From contig JBDRFY010000062.1 in NCBI GenBank assembly GCA_043818275.1, positions 1-63,172 on the forward strand: 63,172 nt of DNA. The letters run 5' to 3'. The stretch's first letter is position 1. Each line of letters starts with the position of its first letter. Of the stretch, positions 3,989 through 57,341 are shown one piece after another. The translations under genes and the position numbers were made by a program. Source of the DNA: a bacterium (GTDB lineage: Bacteria > Babelota > Babeliae > Babelales > JAUWHS01). The notes under the pieces are model-generated. The model was not told where the DNA came from. It saw only the letters and a list, made by a program, of their open reading frames with translations, and made no database searches.

Positions 3989-4023
3989 CCTTCGAGACGC
4001 TTCGCTCCTCAGGATGAACGGAG
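3989..4023 (+). repeat. GC-rich family-1 module (CCTTCGAG...CTCAGGATGAACGG)
   Basis: ccttcgagacgcttcgctcctcaggatgaacggag. The same termini occur at 52360-52406, 58709-58755, 19484-19534 (reverse complement), 22598-22688 (reverse complement) and in the MITE arms at 7531/7671 and 57133/57272. Confidence 0.8.
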
Positions 4024-5538
4024 TTAAAAATTGAGTTTAACGGTTCCCATGATTGTTGTTGTACGATAAATTCTTATTCCACTCAACACAGTTTGAAAAG
4101 AGGCCGCAATCTCTATTCCTGGCGCGATTTGATAATCAAGCCCAGAAAAAATATTTAAAGTTCTCCAGCTTGATTCAATCCGATATTTTTCTTTTTCAAA
4201 TAAATCTTCATTTTTCTTGCCATCTGTACGATTTTCAGTAAAAGTTACTGAATCTTTTTCATGTTGTGTATGAATCAGATCAAAGTAAAAAGACAATGAA
4301 TCTAAAAAATTTTCCGCTTTAAATGAAGCATTTGCATACCATGTAACACCTGGTTGTTTTTTAATGTCAGCCACCCATGGATAAATTCCATACTGATATA
4401 AACTTTATGGAATATGAACATTTTTTAGTTCTCTATGGTTAAAAAATGCCGCGCCAAGACCAAATGCAAGTTGAACTGTACCAGGAAAATCCATATTTAA
4501 TGAACCTTGTAACGTCAAACCTGTATAACCATCGTTACCTGTAGCCAAAGAAAATAAATAATCCTCTTTCTTTTTAGCTCCAGTCGGCGCCCAAACACCA
4601 ATAGAAAAAATCGGAATAAATGACATAACATGATCGCCATCTTCGTCACTCAAATGAATTGGATAATTAAAATAAGCTTCAACATGTGTATCTTCCATGC
4701 AAGTTTTGCTATAGCTATCGGCATCTAAATTTACTTCCCCTAAAATATTTTTTAATTTTTGTTCGTTAGTTAAATAACGCTGAATCAAAATAATAGATGA
4801 ATCAGTTACAACTTGTTTACTGGTTTTATCATTAAAAGTTGGATCCTGATGATAATAACAAATGCCAGTTTTTAAATTCATTCCAAACCATTTAAAAAAA
4901 TCAAAATTAAACTTCGAACGTAAACCTAATTTTTCAAAATCAATTGGGACAGAAACGCGACCAAAATATTCACTTTCTTCAAAATTATCAACATCAGTAA
5001 AATTTGTATTTAATACAGGAATTGGTGAAGTCGCAGTTGAATTTGCCTGAGAATCATTATTTTCTAACGCTGTAAAAGGAGGACTTGCAACTTGCGTATT
5101 TGCATTTGCATCCAGAACAACATTTGCCAAAGCTAAAGTTTGATAATAAAGTCCAGCTCCAACATCAGTTCGCAAATTATAACCCGTAAATTGTAAATCA
5201 TAGGGTTTATCGACAGGAGATGAATTAGGAGATTTTTGTACACCATAAAACAATCCCAACATATTCCAGGTGCCAAGCCGATCGCCTTCACCTAACTTAA
5301 AATCACTGTCTTTTCTGTTTCCATTCAGACCACGGCAACCGGAAGAATGTTGATAATATGGAGATAACGCAAAACTAAACCAGGGTTGTTTTTTCTTTGA
5401 ATAATATTTATCTGTTCCTTTAAAATCATAAAAAATTGCGGAATCGTAATAACTGTTCATCGGAACAGAAAATAAATTGGGAAACAAAATAAAAAATAAA
5501 ATAAAAAATGTTATTTTTTTTAATAACTTAATTTTCAT
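4024..5538 (-). pseudogene. Outer-membrane beta-barrel protein paralog interrupted by one in-frame TAA (4405..4407)
   Basis: ORFs 4405..5538 and 4024..4374 share one frame and are collinear with the intact 515-aa paralog at 5898..7445. Compare HIP*SLYQYGIYPWVADIKKQPG with VPSSMYQYGIYPWKTDIKKQPG. Confidence 0.7.
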
Positions 5539-5608
5539 AAATCCCCCTTTCTCCAGAAAAACTCATGTTTGTCAATTAATCAAAGTTGCTATTTTTGAAA
5601 ATTCTAAC

Positions 5609-5826
5609 AAACCCCGTAGGGGTTATAGATAATAGCCTCGGGTTTTAACCAGTGGATATAAAGATACATCAATCTCCGCTCCACCCCATTTCATGGGGTG
5701 AAAGAAATATTTAAAACTTTTATCAAATAATTCTTTCGTACCATAAAATGGCACGATATTATATGGTTAAATTTTCAACCACGGGTTAAAACCCGAGGCT
5801 ATTATCTCCAGTCCCTAACGGGACTT
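5609..5826. repeat. Family-2 composite element: two about 46-nt GC-rich modules in inverted orientation flanking an AT-rich core
   Basis: The left module is aaccccgtaggggttatagataatagcctcgggttttaaccagtgg. The right module is ccacgggttaaaacccgaggctattatctccagtccctaacgggac. The interior carries the hairpins caccccatttcatggggtg and cgtaccataaaatggcacg. A second copy lies at 51256..51515. Confidence 0.8.
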
Positions 5827-5897: not shown

Positions 5898-7445
5898 CTA
5901 GAAATTAAGTGTCATTGACCCTAGGATGGTAGTAGTTCTGTAAACCCGGGCGCCGCTAATAAGAGACTGAAATGAAATGCCAATACTACAAGCCGGCGCA
6001 ACTTTATAATCAAGCCCCATAAAAATATGTTCCGCTCTCCAACTTGATTCATCTATCATTTTTTGTGGCTTAAAATATGCATTATCCTGTTTGAGCTCAA
6101 TTGTATCTTTTCGATGTTCTGTATGAATTAAATCAAAATAAAATGAAAAGCCTTCTATAAAAATTTGCCCCATCATAGAAAAATTTGCGTACCATGTAGC
6201 CCCTGGTTGTTTTTTAATATCTGTTTTCCATGGATAAATTCCATATTGATACATGCTTGATGGCACCCTCTGATTTTCCAAATCTTTTTTTTCAAAATAA
6301 GCGCCACCCAAACCAAAACCTAGCTGAATAGTTCCAGGAAAATCCAAATTTAATGAACCATCAACTGTCAAACCAAGAAATCCATCATTTCCGGTTGGCA
6401 AAGAAAAAGCATAATCCTGTTTAAAATTTGATCCTGATGGAGCCCAAACTCCAACAGCAAGAATAGGGATAAATGTAACCTCTAATTCGCTATCTTTTCC
6501 CTCTAGTTTAATTGGATAATTCATACTAAATTCAATATGTGTATCTTCCATCGCAGTTTTGCTATATCGGTTAACATCAAGGCCAACCTCATTTGCGATA
6601 GCTTCAATTTTTTCTTCATCGGTTAAATAAGTCTGAACTAAAGTTTTACTTTTTTCTGTTGCATTAGGAAAACTCTGATACCATTTACCTTGTTGTCCTG
6701 AAGTTTTATCAACAAATGTTGGTCGCTGCTTGTAATAACAAACACCTGTTTTTACATTCGCGCCAAAATATTGTCCAAAAACAAAATTCAGTTTTGAACG
6801 TAAACCAATTTTTTCAAAATCAATTGGAACAGAAAGTCTGCCAAATTTATCATCAACATCAAAATTTGTTTCATCCGTGAAATTATAAAGTATTTTATCC
6901 GCAGAATCCGGGCCTGTTGCTAAATCAACTTTATCTATTACAGACTCATCAATTTCTTTTTGGGTAAAAACGGTTAACGAAGTTGCATCATTTTTAATTT
7001 TTGTGGCAGTGTCACCATCTACAACAACTCCTGATAAAACTAAATCAGGATATCGCAAATAACGTTGATAATCTCCGGATGGAGGAGTATTAACTTCCAG
7101 TTCTCCCTGAATTAATTCAAATTTATTATCGGTTGGAGAAGCATCCCGACCGTAAAATAATCCCAGCATATTCCACCAACCCAAACGATCACCTTCTCCC
7201 CAATTATTATTATCCGCATCTTTTCTGGTTCCATTCCAACCACGACAGCCGGAAACACATTGCATGTAAGGAGAAATATCGAAAGTAAACCAGGGTTGTT
7301 TTTTGAAATAATATTTATCCACACCGCGAACATTATAAAAAATTGCCTGATCATAAAAATTGTTTAAAGGCAAAGAAAATAACTCTGAAACAATAAACGT
7401 TGAAAGAAATAAAACTAAACAGAAAGTTTTTTTAATGAACTTCAT
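5898..7445 (-). CDS. Outer-membrane beta-barrel protein (lineage-specific family, signal peptide, C-terminal Phe)
   Basis: 515 aa with an N-terminal signal peptide, alternating beta-strand-like segments and the terminal ...TTTILGSMTLNF. It is a paralog of 4024..5538. Confidence 0.6.
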   Translation of the reverse strand: MKFIKKTFCLVLFLSTFIVSELFSLPLNNFYDQAIFYNVRGVDKYYFKKQPWFTFDISPYMQCVSGCRGWNGTRKDADNNNWGEGDRLGWWNMLGLFYGRDASPTDNKFELIQGELEVNTPPSGDYQRYLRYPDLVLSGVVVDGDTATKIKNDATSLTVFTQKEIDESVIDKVDLATGPDSADKILYNFTDETNFDVDDKFGRLSVPIDFEKIGLRSKLNFVFGQYFGANVKTGVCYYKQRPTFVDKTSGQQGKWYQSFPNATEKSKTLVQTYLTDEEKIEAIANEVGLDVNRYSKTAMEDTHIEFSMNYPIKLEGKDSELEVTFIPILAVGVWAPSGSNFKQDYAFSLPTGNDGFLGLTVDGSLNLDFPGTIQLGFGLGGAYFEKKDLENQRVPSSMYQYGIYPWKTDIKKQPGATWYANFSMMGQIFIEGFSFYFDLIHTEHRKDTIELKQDNAYFKPQKMIDESSWRAEHIFMGLDYKVAPACSIGISFQSLISGARVYRTTTILGSMTLNF

Positions 7446-7530
7446 TACAATATCTCCTGAATAAATTTATCCTAACTCAACCGCTATAAGATTTAAGATA
7501 AATTAATATAAATCTATTAGAAAAAAACTT

Positions 7531-7702
7531 CCCCCCGCTCGCCCTGAGCGTAGTCGAAGGGTTTAATCAGCTACTTAGTCTAACCAGCCTTTTATTGAAT
7601 TGTAAATTTTTATTGCAGAGAAATTTACAACGTCAATAATTCTTATTGCTTTTCAATTACCGCTCGATATCCTTCGACTACGCTCAGGACGAGCGATTGG
7701 GG
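7531..7702. repeat. MITE-like element, about 170 bp, with GC-rich terminal inverted repeats made of family-1 modules
   Basis: The left arm is ccccccgctcgccctgagcgtagtcgaaggg. The right arm is ccttcgactacgctcaggacgagcgattgggg. The AT-rich interior shares ttattgaattNtaaatttttatt with the copy at 57133..57303. Confidence 0.8.
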
Positions 7703-7789
7703 TTAATATTCTAAGAATGAATTCAAAAGAAGCTTACTCGGCTTAAAAATAATACCTGTCTTTTATATCATTAGCAAAAACTTCCGGTC

Positions 7790-7827
7790 AACAATAAAAA
7801 GAAAAGGCGTTCGCAAATGCGAACGCC
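7790..7827 (-). terminator. Rho-independent terminator downstream of the permease gene
   Basis: A 10-bp stem, ggcgttcgca/tgcgaacgcc (7806-7827), is followed on the minus strand by a T-rich run. Confidence 0.7.
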
Positions 7828-7854
7828 CGAACAATTTAATTAATAAATTAAAAT

Positions 7855-9057
7855 TTAATTTAATAATCCTACAATTACTTCAAATGCACTCAATCCTGAA
7901 AAATAAATCATTATTCCACCGCCAAAAAGTGCGATCAAAGTAATAACAATATTCTGTTTTTTCTTTTTGGCAAACAATAAAGACATAATGGAAAGTGTAT
8001 AAGCGGGAACAATGAAAAAAGCAACAATTGCAACTAGACTTTCACCTCGCGCAAGAATTGCTGAAAGTAAAACTATGGCTGTGCAAACCAACACTGATAC
8101 TTTTTCATTCCAAAAACTCTTTTTAAATAAAGTTTTTACAAAACCAGCTTTTGTTTTTTGCAAAACACTGGTTAAAAGTTCACTTATTGCCCAGACAACC
8201 GAATGTAAAGTTCCAACAATTCCAAAAATTGCGCCCGTTGTTACAAGCCAGGCTAAAATTCTATATTTTGGATAAGCTGCCAGCAAAACATCAACAAGCG
8301 GAACATTAATTCCACCAGCAAAATATTGGCTTGGAATAGAATATAAAAAACCAAAAACGAATGTAAAATAAAGTATTCCTACCGCAATCACCGAATAAAT
8401 AAGAGCTTTTGGAACATTTTTTTGTGGATCTTTAACAATTGAATACAAGGAACAAACACATTCAAAACCCAAAAATGAAAATAATAAAGAAGGACCGGCT
8501 CTAAAAATTGGCATAATTCCATTTGGCGCAAAAGGAGTTAAAGTAGCGATATCAAAATTTAACCAGCCAAAAAGACCTGAAAGAAAAAGTCCTGTGATAA
8601 CCAACACAGCAATTAAATATTGCGCCCAGGATGAAGTTTTTGCCCCTGCCAAAATTAAAATCATTAAAATTAAAAGAATATAAATTCCAAGTGGCTGAAC
8701 AGGAATAAATGGAATAACTTTATGAACCCAAATTCCAGCCTGCTGAACTAAAACTCCCATAGCAAGCAAAAGACCGATAATGTATCCAAAAGAAGAAATT
8801 AATCCAACAATATGTCCACCCCAGGTTGATGGATAAAGATAACTCCATCCAGATCCAGGAAACGTTTCAGCTGCGCGTCCCAAAGACAAACCCATTGAAA
8901 TTACTAAAACAATACTTAAAAGAAGAGTTAAAATACTTGCGGGACCAACTAAAGAACTTAAAATTGCCGGCATCAGTAAAACACCAGCTCCAACCATAGC
9001 GTTAAAAGCTATAACCGCCGCCGCTGTCATACTTATTTTCTGCTCACCATTACTCAT
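7855..9057 (-). CDS. Amino acid permease (APC superfamily)
   Basis: 400 aa with about 11-12 predicted TM helices and an APC-like N-terminus (AAAVIAFNAMVGAGVLLMPA). Confidence 0.65.
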   Translation of the reverse strand: MSNGEQKISMTAAAVIAFNAMVGAGVLLMPAILSSLVGPASILTLLLSIVLVISMGLSLGRAAETFPGSGWSYLYPSTWGGHIVGLISSFGYIIGLLLAMGVLVQQAGIWVHKVIPFIPVQPLGIYILLILMILILAGAKTSSWAQYLIAVLVITGLFLSGLFGWLNFDIATLTPFAPNGIMPIFRAGPSLLFSFLGFECVCSLYSIVKDPQKNVPKALIYSVIAVGILYFTFVFGFLYSIPSQYFAGGINVPLVDVLLAAYPKYRILAWLVTTGAIFGIVGTLHSVVWAISELLTSVLQKTKAGFVKTLFKKSFWNEKVSVLVCTAIVLLSAILARGESLVAIVAFFIVPAYTLSIMSLLFAKKKKQNIVITLIALFGGGIMIYFSGLSAFEVIVGLLN

Positions 9058-22326: not shown

Positions 22327-22993
22327 AGTTATCGAAAGTTCACTTGATAATTTTCTCGCTCAGTGTTGGCAATGGGATTTTTTTCCAGAATTTGGCTCCC
22401 TAATTCAGGCACAAAACGAAGATATATTAACTTTAGGAGTTGTAACCCAAATTCAAACAGGGTCTATGGATCCCATGCGATATCCATTCGCATATCAAAA
22501 AACAGAAGAAGAATTAATAGAACAACAACCACAAATATTTGAATTTTTAAAAACAACTTTTAAAGTTCAAATAATTGGTTTTGCAAATTCTAAAAAATCT
22601 CCCGTTCGTCCTGCGTGCCCATCGAAGTCCCGTTTCGAGGCGGGACGAAGACTGGAGGAACCCAAGGGGCATCTCGAAGGATATTCCGAAAAAAATAATT
22701 TTTATTATCATCTTCCGTCAAAACCTTGTAAAATCCACAGTTTTATAAAAAAAGCTGATAAAGAATTAAGCTCCCTTTTTTTTAGCAACCCTGATTTTTT
22801 ACATATGCTTTTTGGTTATTCAAGCCAAATAACAAATCTGGATGAATTATTAATAACTATTTTAAAAAATCTGAAAATAAACAATGAACTTACTTCTTCA
22901 AACCTTAGTAATTTCTGTCAGACATTCTCTATTTTGACAAATAATGACTATAGAAGAATGAAGTCATTTTTATGCAGAATAGAAAGTTTATAA
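22298..22993 (+). CDS. Hypothetical protein carrying an in-frame GC-rich repeat insertion
   Basis: 231-aa ORF overlapping the rnhB 3' end. Its residues SPVRPACPSKSRFEAGRRLEEPKGHLEGYS are encoded by the GC-rich island. Confidence 0.45.
   Translation: MTNKQAYFAEVIESSLDNFLAQCWQWDFFPEFGSLIQAQNEDILTLGVVTQIQTGSMDPMRYPFAYQKTEEELIEQQPQIFEFLKTTFKVQIIGFANSKKSPVRPACPSKSRFEAGRRLEEPKGHLEGYSEKNNFYYHLPSKPCKIHSFIKKADKELSSLFFSNPDFLHMLFGYSSQITNLDELLITILKNLKINNELTSSNLSNFCQTFSILTNNDYRRMKSFLCRIESL
22598..22688 (-). repeat. Family-1 module (long variant) inside a CDS, antisense to the mRNA
   Basis: The plus strand reads cccgttcgtcctg...gtcccgtttcgaggcgggac...ggcatctcgaagg, with termini matching the reverse complement of CCCTTCGAG...CAGGATGAACGGG. 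Confidence 0.7.
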
Positions 22994-23051: not shown

Positions 23052-23942
23052 ATGTTTGGTTTAATAAAAGACAAATTTCAAAAAATATATGACGGTTTTA
23101 CAAAAAAAGCATTTTCAATATTTTCAAATAATAAACTTGATGAAAAATTTATAACAGAGCTCTACGCCCTTTTAATTTCTGCTGACACAGGCGTTGAAAC
23201 TACAAATCAATTAATTGAAAAATTAAAAAATGACATAGCCAATCAAAAAATTAGAAGCCTTGAACAAGCAAAAGAAGAGCTTGAAAAATTATTAATAAAT
23301 CATTTAAAAATTCATACTTCTATTGAATTAGAACCTAAAATATTACTTTTAGTTGGTGTCAATGGAAGCGGTAAAACAACGTTTGCCGCAAAAATTGCCA
23401 ATAAATTAAAAGAAAAAAATAAAAAAGTTTTATTAGTGGCTGGGGACACATTTCGGGCAGCTGCCACAGAACAACTAGATAATTGGGGCAAAAAAATCGG
23501 TGTTGAAGTTTTTATTGGTAAACAAAATCAGGATCCGGCCTCTGTTATATTTGATGCCTGCACATATTTTGAAAAACAAAAATTTGATCATATAATTATA
23601 GACACTGCAGGCAGACTTCAATCAAAAACTAATTTGATGAAAGAATTAGAAAAAATAAAAAAAATAATTTCAAAAAAACTGCAAAATACAAAAACAAGCA
23701 CCTGGCTGACAATTGACAGTATGTTAGGTCAAAATTCTTTAGCTCAGGCAGAAATTTTTAATGATGCAACACAGTTATCAGGAATTGTATTAACCAAGCT
23801 TGACGGTACCGCAAAAGGTGGTATCGTATTTTCTGTAACACAAAACCTTAAACTCCCAATAACATATGTGACATTTGGAGAAAAACTTGATGATATTTCA
23901 AAATTCAAACCAGAAGAATTTGTAACAAGTTTATTTGAATAA
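23052..23942 (+). CDS. ftsY: Signal recognition particle receptor FtsY
   Basis: GVNGSGKTTFAAKIA, DTAGRL and TKLDGTAKGG motifs. Confidence 0.9.
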   Translation: MFGLIKDKFQKIYDGFTKKAFSIFSNNKLDEKFITELYALLISADTGVETTNQLIEKLKNDIANQKIRSLEQAKEELEKLLINHLKIHTSIELEPKILLLVGVNGSGKTTFAAKIANKLKEKNKKVLLVAGDTFRAAATEQLDNWGKKIGVEVFIGKQNQDPASVIFDACTYFEKQKFDHIIIDTAGRLQSKTNLMKELEKIKKIISKKLQNTKTSTWLTIDSMLGQNSLAQAEIFNDATQLSGIVLTKLDGTAKGGIVFSVTQNLKLPITYVTFGEKLDDISKFKPEEFVTSLFE

Positions 23943-51215: not shown

Positions 51216-51515
51216 CCGTACCCTAAGGGCACGGAACCTATGTTAATTATTCAATCCACGGGTTAAAACCCGAGGCTAATAACTATAACCCCTAACGGGG
51301 TTTTAAACACTTTGCATTTTAAACAATCAAACAATTTTCAAAACATATAAAGAGAAGTATAATACAGAACAATTCAACAAAATTAAATAAAATAAAACCA
51401 AATTTATAACCTTTGAAATTTAAATTAACCCTGCTAAGGGTTATAGTTAATAGCCTTCAGCCTACGCATCGCAAATAGCCGTGCTTCGGCGGACAGGCTG
51501 GGTTTTAACCCGTGG
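51216..51515. repeat. Second family-2 composite element (modules in the opposite relative arrangement; the right module is interrupted by a nested GC-rich insert)
   Basis: The left module is ccacgggttaaaacccgaggctaataactataacccctaacggggtt (51256-51302). The right module is aaccctgctaagggttatagttaatagcc[ttcagcctacgcatcgcaaatagccgtgcttcggcggacaggc]tgggttttaacccgtgg (51427-51515). An upstream hairpin ccgtaccctaagggcacgg lies at 51216-51234. Confidence 0.8.
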
Positions 51516-52359: not shown

Positions 52360-52406
52360 CCCTTCGAGACGAAATTTTTTCAAAATTTCTCCTCAGGGTG
52401 AACGGG
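52360..52406 (+). repeat. Family-1 module with an AT-rich hairpin interior
   Basis: cccttcgagacgaaattttttcaaaatttctcctcagggtgaacggg. Confidence 0.75.
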
Positions 52407-56547: not shown

Positions 56548-57084
56548 TCATAAAAAGATTCTCCTGTTTTTTTTGATTTCTGAACCTGAATATTTTTTTA
56601 ATTTTATTTCTACATTTGAAACTCTTTCAAAAAAGAAATTATCCATTGCGTCAAGCAAACGATTTAAATAATAGATCGCAAGTTCTAAATTTTCATTTAA
56701 AAAAAACTGTATACACAATAAGCAATTTTCAACAGATATAATTTCGGTAAATTTTTTTTCATTAATTTGTAACATTAACGGTTTCTTAAAACATTTTTTT
56801 AATTCATCAATAAAAAAACAACCTTCTGGTTCTGAATTAACATATTCACTAGAAGTTAAACTTGAATGTCTTTCTCGATGTCCATCTATTTCATCGGCAT
56901 CCAAAAATTCGTCTTCTTGGCTAAAATATTTTTCATTGATAATCCTACTGCGTTTTTTATTCATTTTTATGTTAAATTTTGCGTTTTTAACGGCATCTGA
57001 CAGTCTTTGAAACGGATTGCAAAAATTTTGTGAGATAAAAAAGAAACAAAATAAGAATAAAATACTTTTTTTAAATTTGAACAT
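56548..57084 (-). CDS. Hypothetical secreted protein
   Basis: Signal peptide MFKFKKSILFLFCFFFISQNFC; no recognisable domain. Confidence 0.4.
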   Translation of the reverse strand: MFKFKKSILFLFCFFFISQNFCNPFQRLSDAVKNAKFNIKMNKKRSRIINEKYFSQEDEFLDADEIDGHRERHSSLTSSEYVNSEPEGCFFIDELKKCFKKPLMLQINEKKFTEIISVENCLLCIQFFLNENLELAIYYLNRLLDAMDNFFFERVSNVEIKLKKYSGSEIKKNRRIFL

Positions 57085-57132
57085 TCCCTTCCCCCCAGAA
57101 AAACATTTGTTTATGTTTTTTGCTTAAATCCA

Positions 57133-57303
57133 CCCTCTTCCGCTCGCCCTGAGCGTAGTCGAAGGGTTTCAAACAATAAACGATTAAAAATCGCCTATTG
57201 AATTATAAATTTTTATTACATCTATTTTTACATATAAAATAATTTTTATTGCCATTGACAATTATTCTCAACCCTTCGACTTCGCTCAGGGCGAGCGGAA
57301 AAG
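57133..57303. repeat. Second copy of the about 170-bp MITE-like element with family-1 terminal inverted repeats
   Basis: The left arm is ccctcttccgctcgccctgagcgtagtcgaaggg. The right arm is cccttcgacttcgctcagggcgagcggaaaag. The interior is similar to the copy at 7531..7702. Confidence 0.8.
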
Positions 57304-57341
57304 AAATTATTTGATTGTTAATATACGAAATTTATCACCAA

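Follow-up and report, generated by a model that had tools for sequence, protein, structure and literature searches.

The stretch of DNA analysed here, referred to as the window, is the whole of contig C62 (63,172 nt) from the assembly of a Dependentiae genome, G000, which comprises 92 contigs and 1.33 Mb at 30.8% GC. The window contains two copies of a palindromic element of about 200 bp, copy 1 at 7514..7715 and copy 2 at 57123..57316. The original prediction had described copy 1 as a unit of about 170 bp resembling a miniature inverted-repeat transposable element (MITE). Our analysis indicates that the element probably derives from a miniature element with hairpin ends and is a non-autonomous form of it that lacks the gene; the only protein encoded by the full element is a 91-aa GIY-YIG nuclease.

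Two copies of a dispersed hairpin element

The GC-rich arms on which the original prediction was based, CCCCCCGCTCGCCCTGAGCGTAGTCGAAGGG and CCTTCGACTACGCTCAGGACGAGCGATTGGGG, were located at 7531-7561 and 7671-7702, around an AT-rich core, and the two halves of the 10-bp inner hairpin, TTGTAAATTT and AAATTTACAA, were found at 7600-7609 and 7621-7630; the second copy was likewise confirmed at the stated 57133-57303. This hairpin (7600..7630) is part of the palindromic core of most copies. The palindromic unit is real and multi-copy, but its conserved length is about 200 bp and it extends some 15-20 nt further on each side than had been described. Alignment of the flanks of the copies placed the outer limits at CTTAGAATwTTAAC and GTTAAwATTCTAAG (7514-7715 and ~57123-57316), with conservation ending at the C of CTTAG. 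Copy 1 begins with a degenerate left terminus, CTTAGAATwTTAACCCCAcc in the consensus of ends (7514..7534, plus strand), followed by the left GC-rich module, CCGCTCG-C-CCTGAG-CGTAG-TCGAAGG-G (7535..7561, plus strand), which has lost the 3′ half of its outer stem (TTACGAGCGG) and gives no complete module fold. The core motif TATTGAATTGTAAATTTTTATT occupies 7593..7614 on the plus strand. The right module, CGCTCG-T-CCTGAG-CGTAG-TCGAAGG-A-TAT-CGAGCGG (7660..7695, minus strand), is complete and folds as a hairpin of -7.9 kcal/mol, and the right terminus, ATTGGGGTTAATATTCTAAG, occupies 7696..7715 on the minus strand. In copy 2 the outer ends have decayed and the limits are approximate; its arms lie at 57140-57166 (plus strand) and 57272-57298 (minus strand), both without the inner stem half, and its core motif TATTGAATTATAAATTTTTATT at 57196-57217 (plus strand) matches 7593-7614 of copy 1.

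The arm pairs of both copies were detected independently by a repeat finder as inverted repeats I3 and I4, and the window gave four matches to the arm 17-mer CTGAGCGTAGTCGAAGG when up to 3 mismatches were allowed, where 0.03 would be expected. As single-stranded DNA (ssDNA), the segment 7515-7715 folds into one long hairpin comprising the whole element (-42.1 kcal/mol, z = -8.2). No Rfam family matched the element at the gathering threshold; at E <= 1 the only matches were to eukaryotic miRNAs and snoRNAs, far below threshold and typical of any long hairpin. The inner stem half (TTACGAGCGG) is missing from three of the four window arms, leaving a complete module fold only at 7660-7695, and the window copies, which are old and partly decayed, are therefore probably immobile relics.

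The genome-wide search recommended with the original prediction recovered no fewer than 12 complete short copies, whose flanks are unrelated, and the alternative of just two copies produced by a segmental duplication therefore did not hold. G000 contains 53 arm-like 17-mers, among them 12 arm pairs about 125 nt apart on nine contigs; further partial copies lie at contig ends (C1, C20, C59, C60), and the true copy number is therefore higher than our count. It is virtually certain that the element belongs to a dispersed repeat family. Copy 1 aligns end to end with nine other short copies. The short form has inverted ends of about 60 nt and an AT-rich palindromic core of about 90 nt, and mean pairwise identity among short copies in this 31% GC genome is highest in the modules (80-83%), falls to 52% in the core and is lowest at the outer tips (36-43%); to judge from this divergence, the short copies are old. 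By a simple open reading frame (ORF) call, 13 of 13 full-length copies are intergenic, in most cases with a gene 3′ end on one side and a gene 5′ start on the other, the copy on C12 falling inside a single, probably spurious ORF. Target-site duplications were sought at the six copies with two defined termini and no consistent direct repeat was found, the AT-rich flanks limiting the power of this comparison.

The gene-bearing form and its nuclease

At C75:30723-31148 lies a longer element whose ends, of about 60 nt, are those of the short copies. It measures 426 bp and encloses an intact 91-aa GIY-YIG gene, whose ORF (C75:30799-31074) sits exactly between the two arms, and its termini read CTTAGAAT...CCGCTCGTCCTrAGCGTAGTCGAAGGAT...CGAGCGGTA, as in the short elements. 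The observation that no transposase accompanies either window copy is correct locally, but it is misleading in view of this nuclease gene. In a joint alignment the short copies matched ~100 nt at the start and ~90 nt at the end of the 426-bp element and lacked the middle ~225 nt, which is essentially the whole ORF. The shared core motif aligned with the nuclease leader and first codons (ATTATGACTTTTTACGTTTACATGC versus ATTATTGAATTTGTAAATATATATGC), and in copy 1 it appears as a relic of this segment, which reads ATTATGACTTTTTACGTTTACA in the C75 element. The left interior of the C75 element matched the short-copy consensus with z = 5.2-5.4 (P ~0.0003-0.0007 against shuffles).

The deletion limits are identical in all short copies, which indicates that one deleted progenitor multiplied. 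Both core halves are nearer to the left than to the right interior of the long element (z = 5.4 and 3.0 versus 3.2 and 0.75); this is no more than suggestive of a short-family progenitor that was formed by folding back the left end. Since the C75 element with the same ends carries the gene, we read the short copies as gene-less derivatives, and their common descent with the nuclease cassette is very probable. Only one gene-bearing copy with these exact ends is present in G000, as against 12 short ones.

The 91-aa protein (MTFYVYMLRCADGSFYIGHTDNLENRRYEHQ...AERKLKGWMRKKK) is a single-domain protein that matches PF01541 with 63.5 bits and retains the GIY (FYVY), YIG (FYIG), Arg, Glu-His and Glu (AERK) motifs. 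Its nearest structures are both UPF0213 proteins, BH0048 (1zg2, E = 7.8e-13) and EF2693 (1ywl, E = 5.1e-10), and Bacillus subtilis YazA matches it at 39.5% identity. We refer to this UPF0213/YazA-like type as class A and to the other small GIY-YIG type as class B. A PF01541 profile search of G000 detected six small GIY-YIG ORFs plus UvrC. The second class A gene (C18:20491-20781) also lies between inverted modules, of a different interior type. The four genes of the other class encode proteins of 80-90 aa (MFYVYIIQS...) at C50:67836-68078, C18:26387-26629, C21:10479-10721 and C6:11626-11898; three lie directly downstream of tRNA genes, the C18 gene has the same hairpin leader, and none of the four showed a link to CCTGAG modules.

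These observations also bear on a classical origin, in which an insertion sequence would have given rise to the element as a MITE, with a DDE transposase acting in trans on the AT-rich tips (CTTAGAAT...). The size of about 200 bp, the inverted ends of about 60 nt, the lack of coding capacity, the presence of at least 12 copies and their intergenic positions would all suit such an origin. We nevertheless regard it as very improbable, as there is no consistent target-site duplication, conservation is lowest at the outer tips (36-43% identity), and the genomic CTTAGAATwTTAAC ends that continue into conserved sequence all lead into the module, with none bounding a transposase gene. The one longer element that shares these ends codes for the GIY-YIG protein.

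Hairpin modules and their association with the nuclease gene

The arms follow the form CCGCTCG-Y-CCTGAG-CGNAG-TCGAAGG-R-TTA-CGAGCGG, which is self-folding. We counted 96 modules of the strict pattern CCTGAG-N(0-60)-TCGAAGG in G000, compared with about 1 in shuffled sequence; they share a 5′ box, CCG-Y-TC-R-Y, and their interiors range from 4 nt to sub-hairpins of 50 nt. Because inserts of 4-60 nt are tolerated between CCTGAG and TCGAAGG, nested insertion into modules evidently occurs. In 96 of 96 modules the base before CCTGAG pairs with the base after TCGAAGG (T-A 45, C-G 41, T.G 10, C-A 0). Two elements, copy 1 and one on C90, have different pair types in their left and right arms while each arm is internally matched, which means that the constraint acts on the single arm; this points to recognition of a folded single strand rather than a duplex. 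A compensatory change from CCT/AGG to CCC/GGG was found in the module beside the second nuclease gene (C18). From the pattern of conservation, the minimal interior would be a C-G pair closing a GNA triloop, flanked by tandem G.A pairs; its N is the sole freely varying base across phyla (A 67, G 34, C 21, T 12). A model in which the stem continues without interruption beyond the -1/+1 pair was rejected across phyla, where offsets 2-10 were at background because the stems are bulge-offset and lineage-specific.

Modules of other types were also recorded. In the window, modules of other CCTGAG..TCGAAGG subfamilies, with interiors GAGCGAAGCGTC and GAGAAATTTTGAAAAAATTTCGTC, lie at 3989-4013 (minus strand), 1231-1270, 52361-52397 (minus strand) and 22596-22680, the last being a long module within a GC island. 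G000 further contains a second MITE-like doublet family of at least 8 copies, formed by two inverted CCGTTCGY-CCTGAG-GAG[hairpin]GTC-TCGAAGG modules at a spacing of about 80 nt and showing the conserved inner flanks GTAATCCAAATA and ATATTCCTTATA (C6:25451-25568, C27:11391-11515 and 23232-23350, C30:6247-6365, C50:25493-25611, C71:3859-3987, C36:42926-43076 and C89:10760-11015).

Both class A genes of G000 have a module within 34 nt, whereas a random 300-nt interval falls within 50 nt of a module with a probability of 0.024. A survey of 40 related genomes extended this association. Strict-pattern modules lay within ~200 nt of 15 of 21 class A loci and of none of nine weaker, class-B-like loci (P = 3.5e-4), and at the seven class A loci with modules on both sides the upstream module was in plus and the downstream module in minus orientation. 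This layout, a module, the gene and an inverted module, is conserved in several Dependentiae families with different module interiors. The number of modules per genome ranged from 0 to 247 and correlated with the class A copy number (Spearman 0.52, P = 4.5e-4); a class A gene was present in 8 of 13 module-rich genomes and in 7 of 28 of the rest (Fisher P = 0.029). The nuclease gene is multi-copy, with pseudogenes, in four relatives (G023, G025, G027, G032). G023, which is of the same order, has 247 strict modules in 1.2 Mb, many of them as inverted CCTGAGCTTGTCGAAGG doublets about 72 nt apart, and six sites that match the class A nuclease, some of them containing stop codons. In G032 two copies are near-identical from GTCATCCTGAG to CTCAGGATGAC, the outer module edges, and diverge outside them; their arm types are swapped, as expected if inverted arms recombine.

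Hairpin doublets can also be moved by another kind of enzyme. Repetitive extragenic palindromic (REP) sequences and their doublets (REPINs), with the REP-associated tyrosine transposases (RAYTs), and the IS200/IS605 elements combine ssDNA hairpin repeats, inverted doublets, no target-site duplication and a small enzyme gene flanked by its own repeats, features that are also treated in PMC11893778. The element would then be a REP/REPIN-like doublet mobilised by the Y1 (IS200-like or RAYT-like) transposases of G000, which has five intact Y1_Tnp genes, four of them of the 150-160-aa type; its hairpins are likewise arranged as inverted doublets, with no target-site duplication seen. One Y1 protein that was scanned matched the REP-tyrosine-transposase model only weakly (30 bits, cut-off 80), and it fitted IS200 better (81.5 bits). 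The six Y1 genes of G000 have no module within 3.6 kb, Y1 was as frequent in module-rich genomes (6 of 13) as in the rest (14 of 28; P = 0.71), and there was no Y1 homologue among the 120 listed cross-phylum module loci. On these tests of distance and co-occurrence we rejected mobilisation by Y1 enzymes as highly improbable. Unlike REP/REPIN and IS200/IS605, the partner here would be a hydrolytic GIY-YIG nuclease and not an HUH/Y1 enzyme, and the Y1 genes of G000 are unlinked to modules.

The modules are not restricted to Dependentiae. A search of a genome collection with the 18-mer CCTGAGCGNAGTCGAAGG returned at least 120 loci in at least 15 phyla. About 70 chance matches are expected in 596 Gb, so the scan alone is weak and support was drawn instead from the flanks and from pairing statistics. 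The 5′ flanks of the matches listed were strongly non-random (GCCTGC, TGTCAC, TGTCAT, GCTCAT...), and the -1/+1 pair was kept in 124 of the 134 listed instances from other phyla, with 108 Watson-Crick pairs versus 58 when shuffled. Two of the listed loci adjoin a class A homologue, one in an Ignavibacteriales metagenome-assembled genome (MAG), where the gene is flanked on both sides, and one in Hyphomonas atlantica. In Sphingomonas parapaucimobilis YK209 a gene annotated as 'GIY-YIG nuclease family protein' (48.8% identical) lies between nrdR and an RNA methyltransferase gene, with GCTGAGCGAAGTCGAAGC modules upstream and a C-terminus translated from module-like sequence. This protein (NZ_CP155752.1:295828-296148) ends in ...SERALRLRSGRTRE, and its annotated C-terminus is probably an artefact of translation into a hairpin module.

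A literature search by topic (Dependentiae palindromic repeats; GIY-YIG with hairpin) returned a single relevant work, Chenal et al. 2025 (Nat Commun 16:2388, PMC11893778), and a search by sequence with six variants of the arm 17-mer found no paper. In that work SsnA, a single-domain GIY-YIG nuclease of 94 aa, cleaves ssDNA exclusively, beside a flanking hairpin repeat and about 3 nt 5′ of the NTS; Ssn function is tied to natural transformation in Neisseria; and the NTS-ssnA-NTS layout is likened to an insertion sequence, a former or domesticated mobile element being raised only as an idea (PMC11893778). The present family resembles Ssn/NTS in having a single-domain GIY-YIG gene of ~90-100 aa between inverted hairpin repeats that are dispersed in the genome (C75:30723-31148, C18:20491-20781 and 15 of 21 class A loci in the relatives), and modules of many lineages have a GTCAY 5′ box like that of the NTS. 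The family differs in its module stems, which are of the CCT-GA...GA-AGG class with a variable interior, and in having a gene-less derivative of about 200 bp that is bounded by long inverted ends and absent from the matching sites of a congener; no such derivative is described for Ssn (PMC11893778). The SRM pattern, HGTCWYN(0-2)YYVSBRHN(0-5)WNVSBRGN(0-2)RNCYNB, had no match in G000 (0.95 in shuffles) and fitted none of the 96 modules. We recovered the NTS-flanked layout from metagenome contigs L189 and L208 (CGTCATTCCCGCGAAAGCGGGAATCC-ATG...), and the 91-aa nuclease was 34-39% identical (E ~1e-8) to such NTS-flanked proteins (REKQLKKWNRAWK type). In a tree of 18 sequences and 88 columns the NTS-flanked proteins formed a separate clade (100/94), with the 91-aa nuclease outside it and unresolved with respect to BH0048 and EF2693. 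Because the SRM pattern is absent and the nuclease falls outside the NTS-linked clade in this small tree, we file the element as one that would work like Ssn/NTS while being a different variant.

Genomic setting, proposed movement and significance

The sites occupied in G000 were compared with those of G001, a genome of the same genus. G001 has no copy of the element and only one strict module genome-wide. Both window copies, for which empty sites in relatives had been proposed as a check, are missing from the matching G001 sites. The site of copy 1 measures ~30 nt in G001 versus ~290 nt in G000, and the site of copy 2 holds an unrelated perfect palindrome instead. This 30-bp palindrome, GATCAGCATAGTCAATTGACTATGCTGATC, stands at the place of copy 2 in the orthologous spacer between the signal-peptide ORF and glmS (G001 C29, ~14.9 kb). 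The two genes on either side of the gene-bearing element are separated by 598 nt in G000 and by 4 nt in G001 (TAA-TCTT-ATG). In G000 the interval is made up of the 426-bp element, one more module and an AT-rich spacer; the whole 598 nt is missing in G001, so that the comparison is one of presence versus absence, with exact ends not defined. The sole class A homologue of G001 is truncated, stopping short of the C-terminal KGWsRkKK segment, and lacks modules.

As had been predicted, both window copies lie 5′ of minus-strand ORFs with signal-peptide-like N-termini, at 35-70 nt, a position explained by the element's location in intergenic spacers. The gene beside copy 1 (5898..7445, minus strand) encodes a 515-aa protein with a C-terminal Phe, and its start codon is 69 nt from the element. 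Its signal-peptide-like N-terminus was borne out, but the label of outer-membrane protein was unsupported, since no Pfam family matched. This gene and 4405-5538, which also had no Pfam family, are tandem paralogous signal-peptide genes with 71-79% DNA identity over several blocks (D1-D3, D9, D10). Between the two paralogues lies an inverted pair of an unrelated palindromic repeat family, CCCCGTAGGGGTTATAG..GCCTCGGGTTTTAACC (5598-5662 and 5772-5822), with a third copy at 51.2 kb (51239-51313; I1, I2, D16). On the other side of copy 1, an intrinsic-terminator-like hairpin (7805..7828, minus strand), separate from the element, was found by the terminator scan after an amino-acid permease gene (7855-9057, minus strand). 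Copy 2 is bordered at ~35 nt by the start of a 178-aa ORF (56548..57084, minus strand) with a signal-peptide-like N-terminus, and at ~25 nt on its other side by the 3′ end of glmS (57342..59276, minus strand). Within glmS two GC-rich inserts are read in frame, at 58707-58755 and 58347-58389; a CCTGAG-CGAGCAAATGCGAG-TCGAAGG module is translated as PVHPERANASRRAGE and a GCCAAGGCTTCGCC-type module as FAKASPDKRENE.

The suggestion that the copies might supply or disturb promoters was neither supported nor contradicted. In a consensus scan the two copies gave 3 promoter-like matches each, versus 1.4 +/- 1.0 and 1.2 +/- 1.0 in shuffles, which is not clearly higher, and the terminator scan gave no signal clearly above shuffles inside the element. 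Any effect on downstream genes through the hairpin or through promoter displacement would be a side effect. It could be argued that the element instead serves the host, as a bidirectional transcription barrier, an mRNA-stabilising hairpin or a promoter module under selection, with the link to the nuclease being incidental. All 13 full-length copies are intergenic, most between a gene 3′ end and the next 5′ end, the whole element forms a very stable hairpin, and the modules are conserved despite the AT bias of the genome; to maintain GC-rich modules at 31% GC, either selection is required or else the ~96 modules must undergo gene conversion or be renewed through the action of the nuclease. A host role is improbable all the same, given that the same-genus genome lacks the element at all three sites compared, that no promoter or terminator signal stands clearly above shuffles, that the window copies are decaying and that no Rfam family matches.

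We consider it somewhat more probable than its opposite that the nuclease mobilises or maintains the element. By analogy with SsnA and the NTS, the nuclease would recognise the module as an ssDNA hairpin and nick beside it, and because the two modules are inverted there would be one cleavable end per strand. New copies could then arise when an excised single strand is re-inserted with host ligation, or by break-induced copying from another module-bearing locus; both routes fit the missing target-site duplications and the frequent nested inserts inside modules.

Several points weigh against this explanation. To our knowledge, GIY-YIG enzymes are hydrolytic and have no strand-transfer step, and we know of no biochemistry for this nuclease clade. 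The G001 sites are only ~77% identical to those of G000, too diverged to define the insertion junctions of the window copies, for which a loss in G001 rather than a gain in G000 is possible. With a mutual identity of only about 70-80%, the short copies give no sign of recent activity, and no polymorphic empty site was found in four public groundwater and biofilm metagenomes, which yielded only depth-2 fragments and no joints. Seven relatives have a class A gene but few strict-pattern modules, and five module-rich relatives (G012, G018, G022, G034, G037) show no class A gene; the latter are not decisive, as incomplete MAGs may miss the gene and repeats may outlive their enzyme. In principle, too, the gene could be a secondary invader of one copy of an older repeat. 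The GIY-YIG gene, free-standing and resembling a homing endonuclease, would then have entered one copy or hairpin loop of existing palindromic repeats, which themselves spread by recombination, by replication template switching or through an unidentified enzyme. Such an invasion would account for the single gene-bearing copy with exact ends beside 12 short ones and for the five module-rich relatives without the gene, and the modules do accept inserts of 4-60 nt. We consider it unlikely, because the leader and start-codon relic kept in the short copies indicates descent from a gene-bearing form, because the layout of module, gene and inverted module recurs with differing interiors in several Dependentiae families and in three other lineages, and because two G032 copies share the whole module-bounded unit.

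Known families of small repeats share some of these features with the nuclease-linked element. Bacterial MITEs, such as the Correia elements of Neisseria, RUP and ERIC, are small, non-coding, multi-copy and intergenic, with terminal inverted repeats, and include internal-deletion derivatives. The short element is like them in each of these respects, being internally deleted from a coding element, and unlike them in that no target-site duplication was seen and its coding partner has no DDE transposase. Rickettsia palindromic elements (RPEs) and the GC clusters of yeast mitochondria are GC-rich or palindromic selfish modules in AT-rich reduced genomes, and we know of no enzyme partner for RPEs. 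The bare module in frame inside glmS recalls an RPE; unlike RPEs, 13 of 13 full-length copies are intergenic and only bare modules occur inside genes.

The family described here supplies the evidence that a claim of mobility calls for: a single genome holds both a gene-bearing form and a same-ended deletion derivative, copies are numerous and dispersed, the congener with the dead nuclease gene has empty sites, and relatives carry multi-copy, pseudogenised cassettes. It extends the partnership of hairpin and nuclease to a second repeat grammar and to a different clade (UPF0213/YazA/YhbQ), which is present in model bacteria. More tentatively, CCTGAG...TCGAAGG modules and UPF0213-like mini GIY-YIG proteins may together represent a pan-bacterial class of transposable elements in which a hydrolytic nuclease of ~90 aa is the only element-encoded protein. 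This class would comprise autonomous forms of ~0.4 kb, foldback derivatives of MITE type like the two window copies, and solo hairpins, which even essential genes can carry and read through, and it would move by ssDNA nicking at hairpins together with host repair or replication, a mode distinct from that of the DDE, HUH/Y1, serine and tyrosine recombinases. If the nuclease does mobilise the element, it would represent a new enzymatic class in prokaryotic transposition and would provide a function for the very large set of 'GIY-YIG nuclease family protein' annotations. It would also account for GC-rich hairpins in AT-rich reduced genomes that yield spurious or in-frame peptide segments, and new sequence-specific ssDNA nucleases of this kind would be useful laboratory tools.

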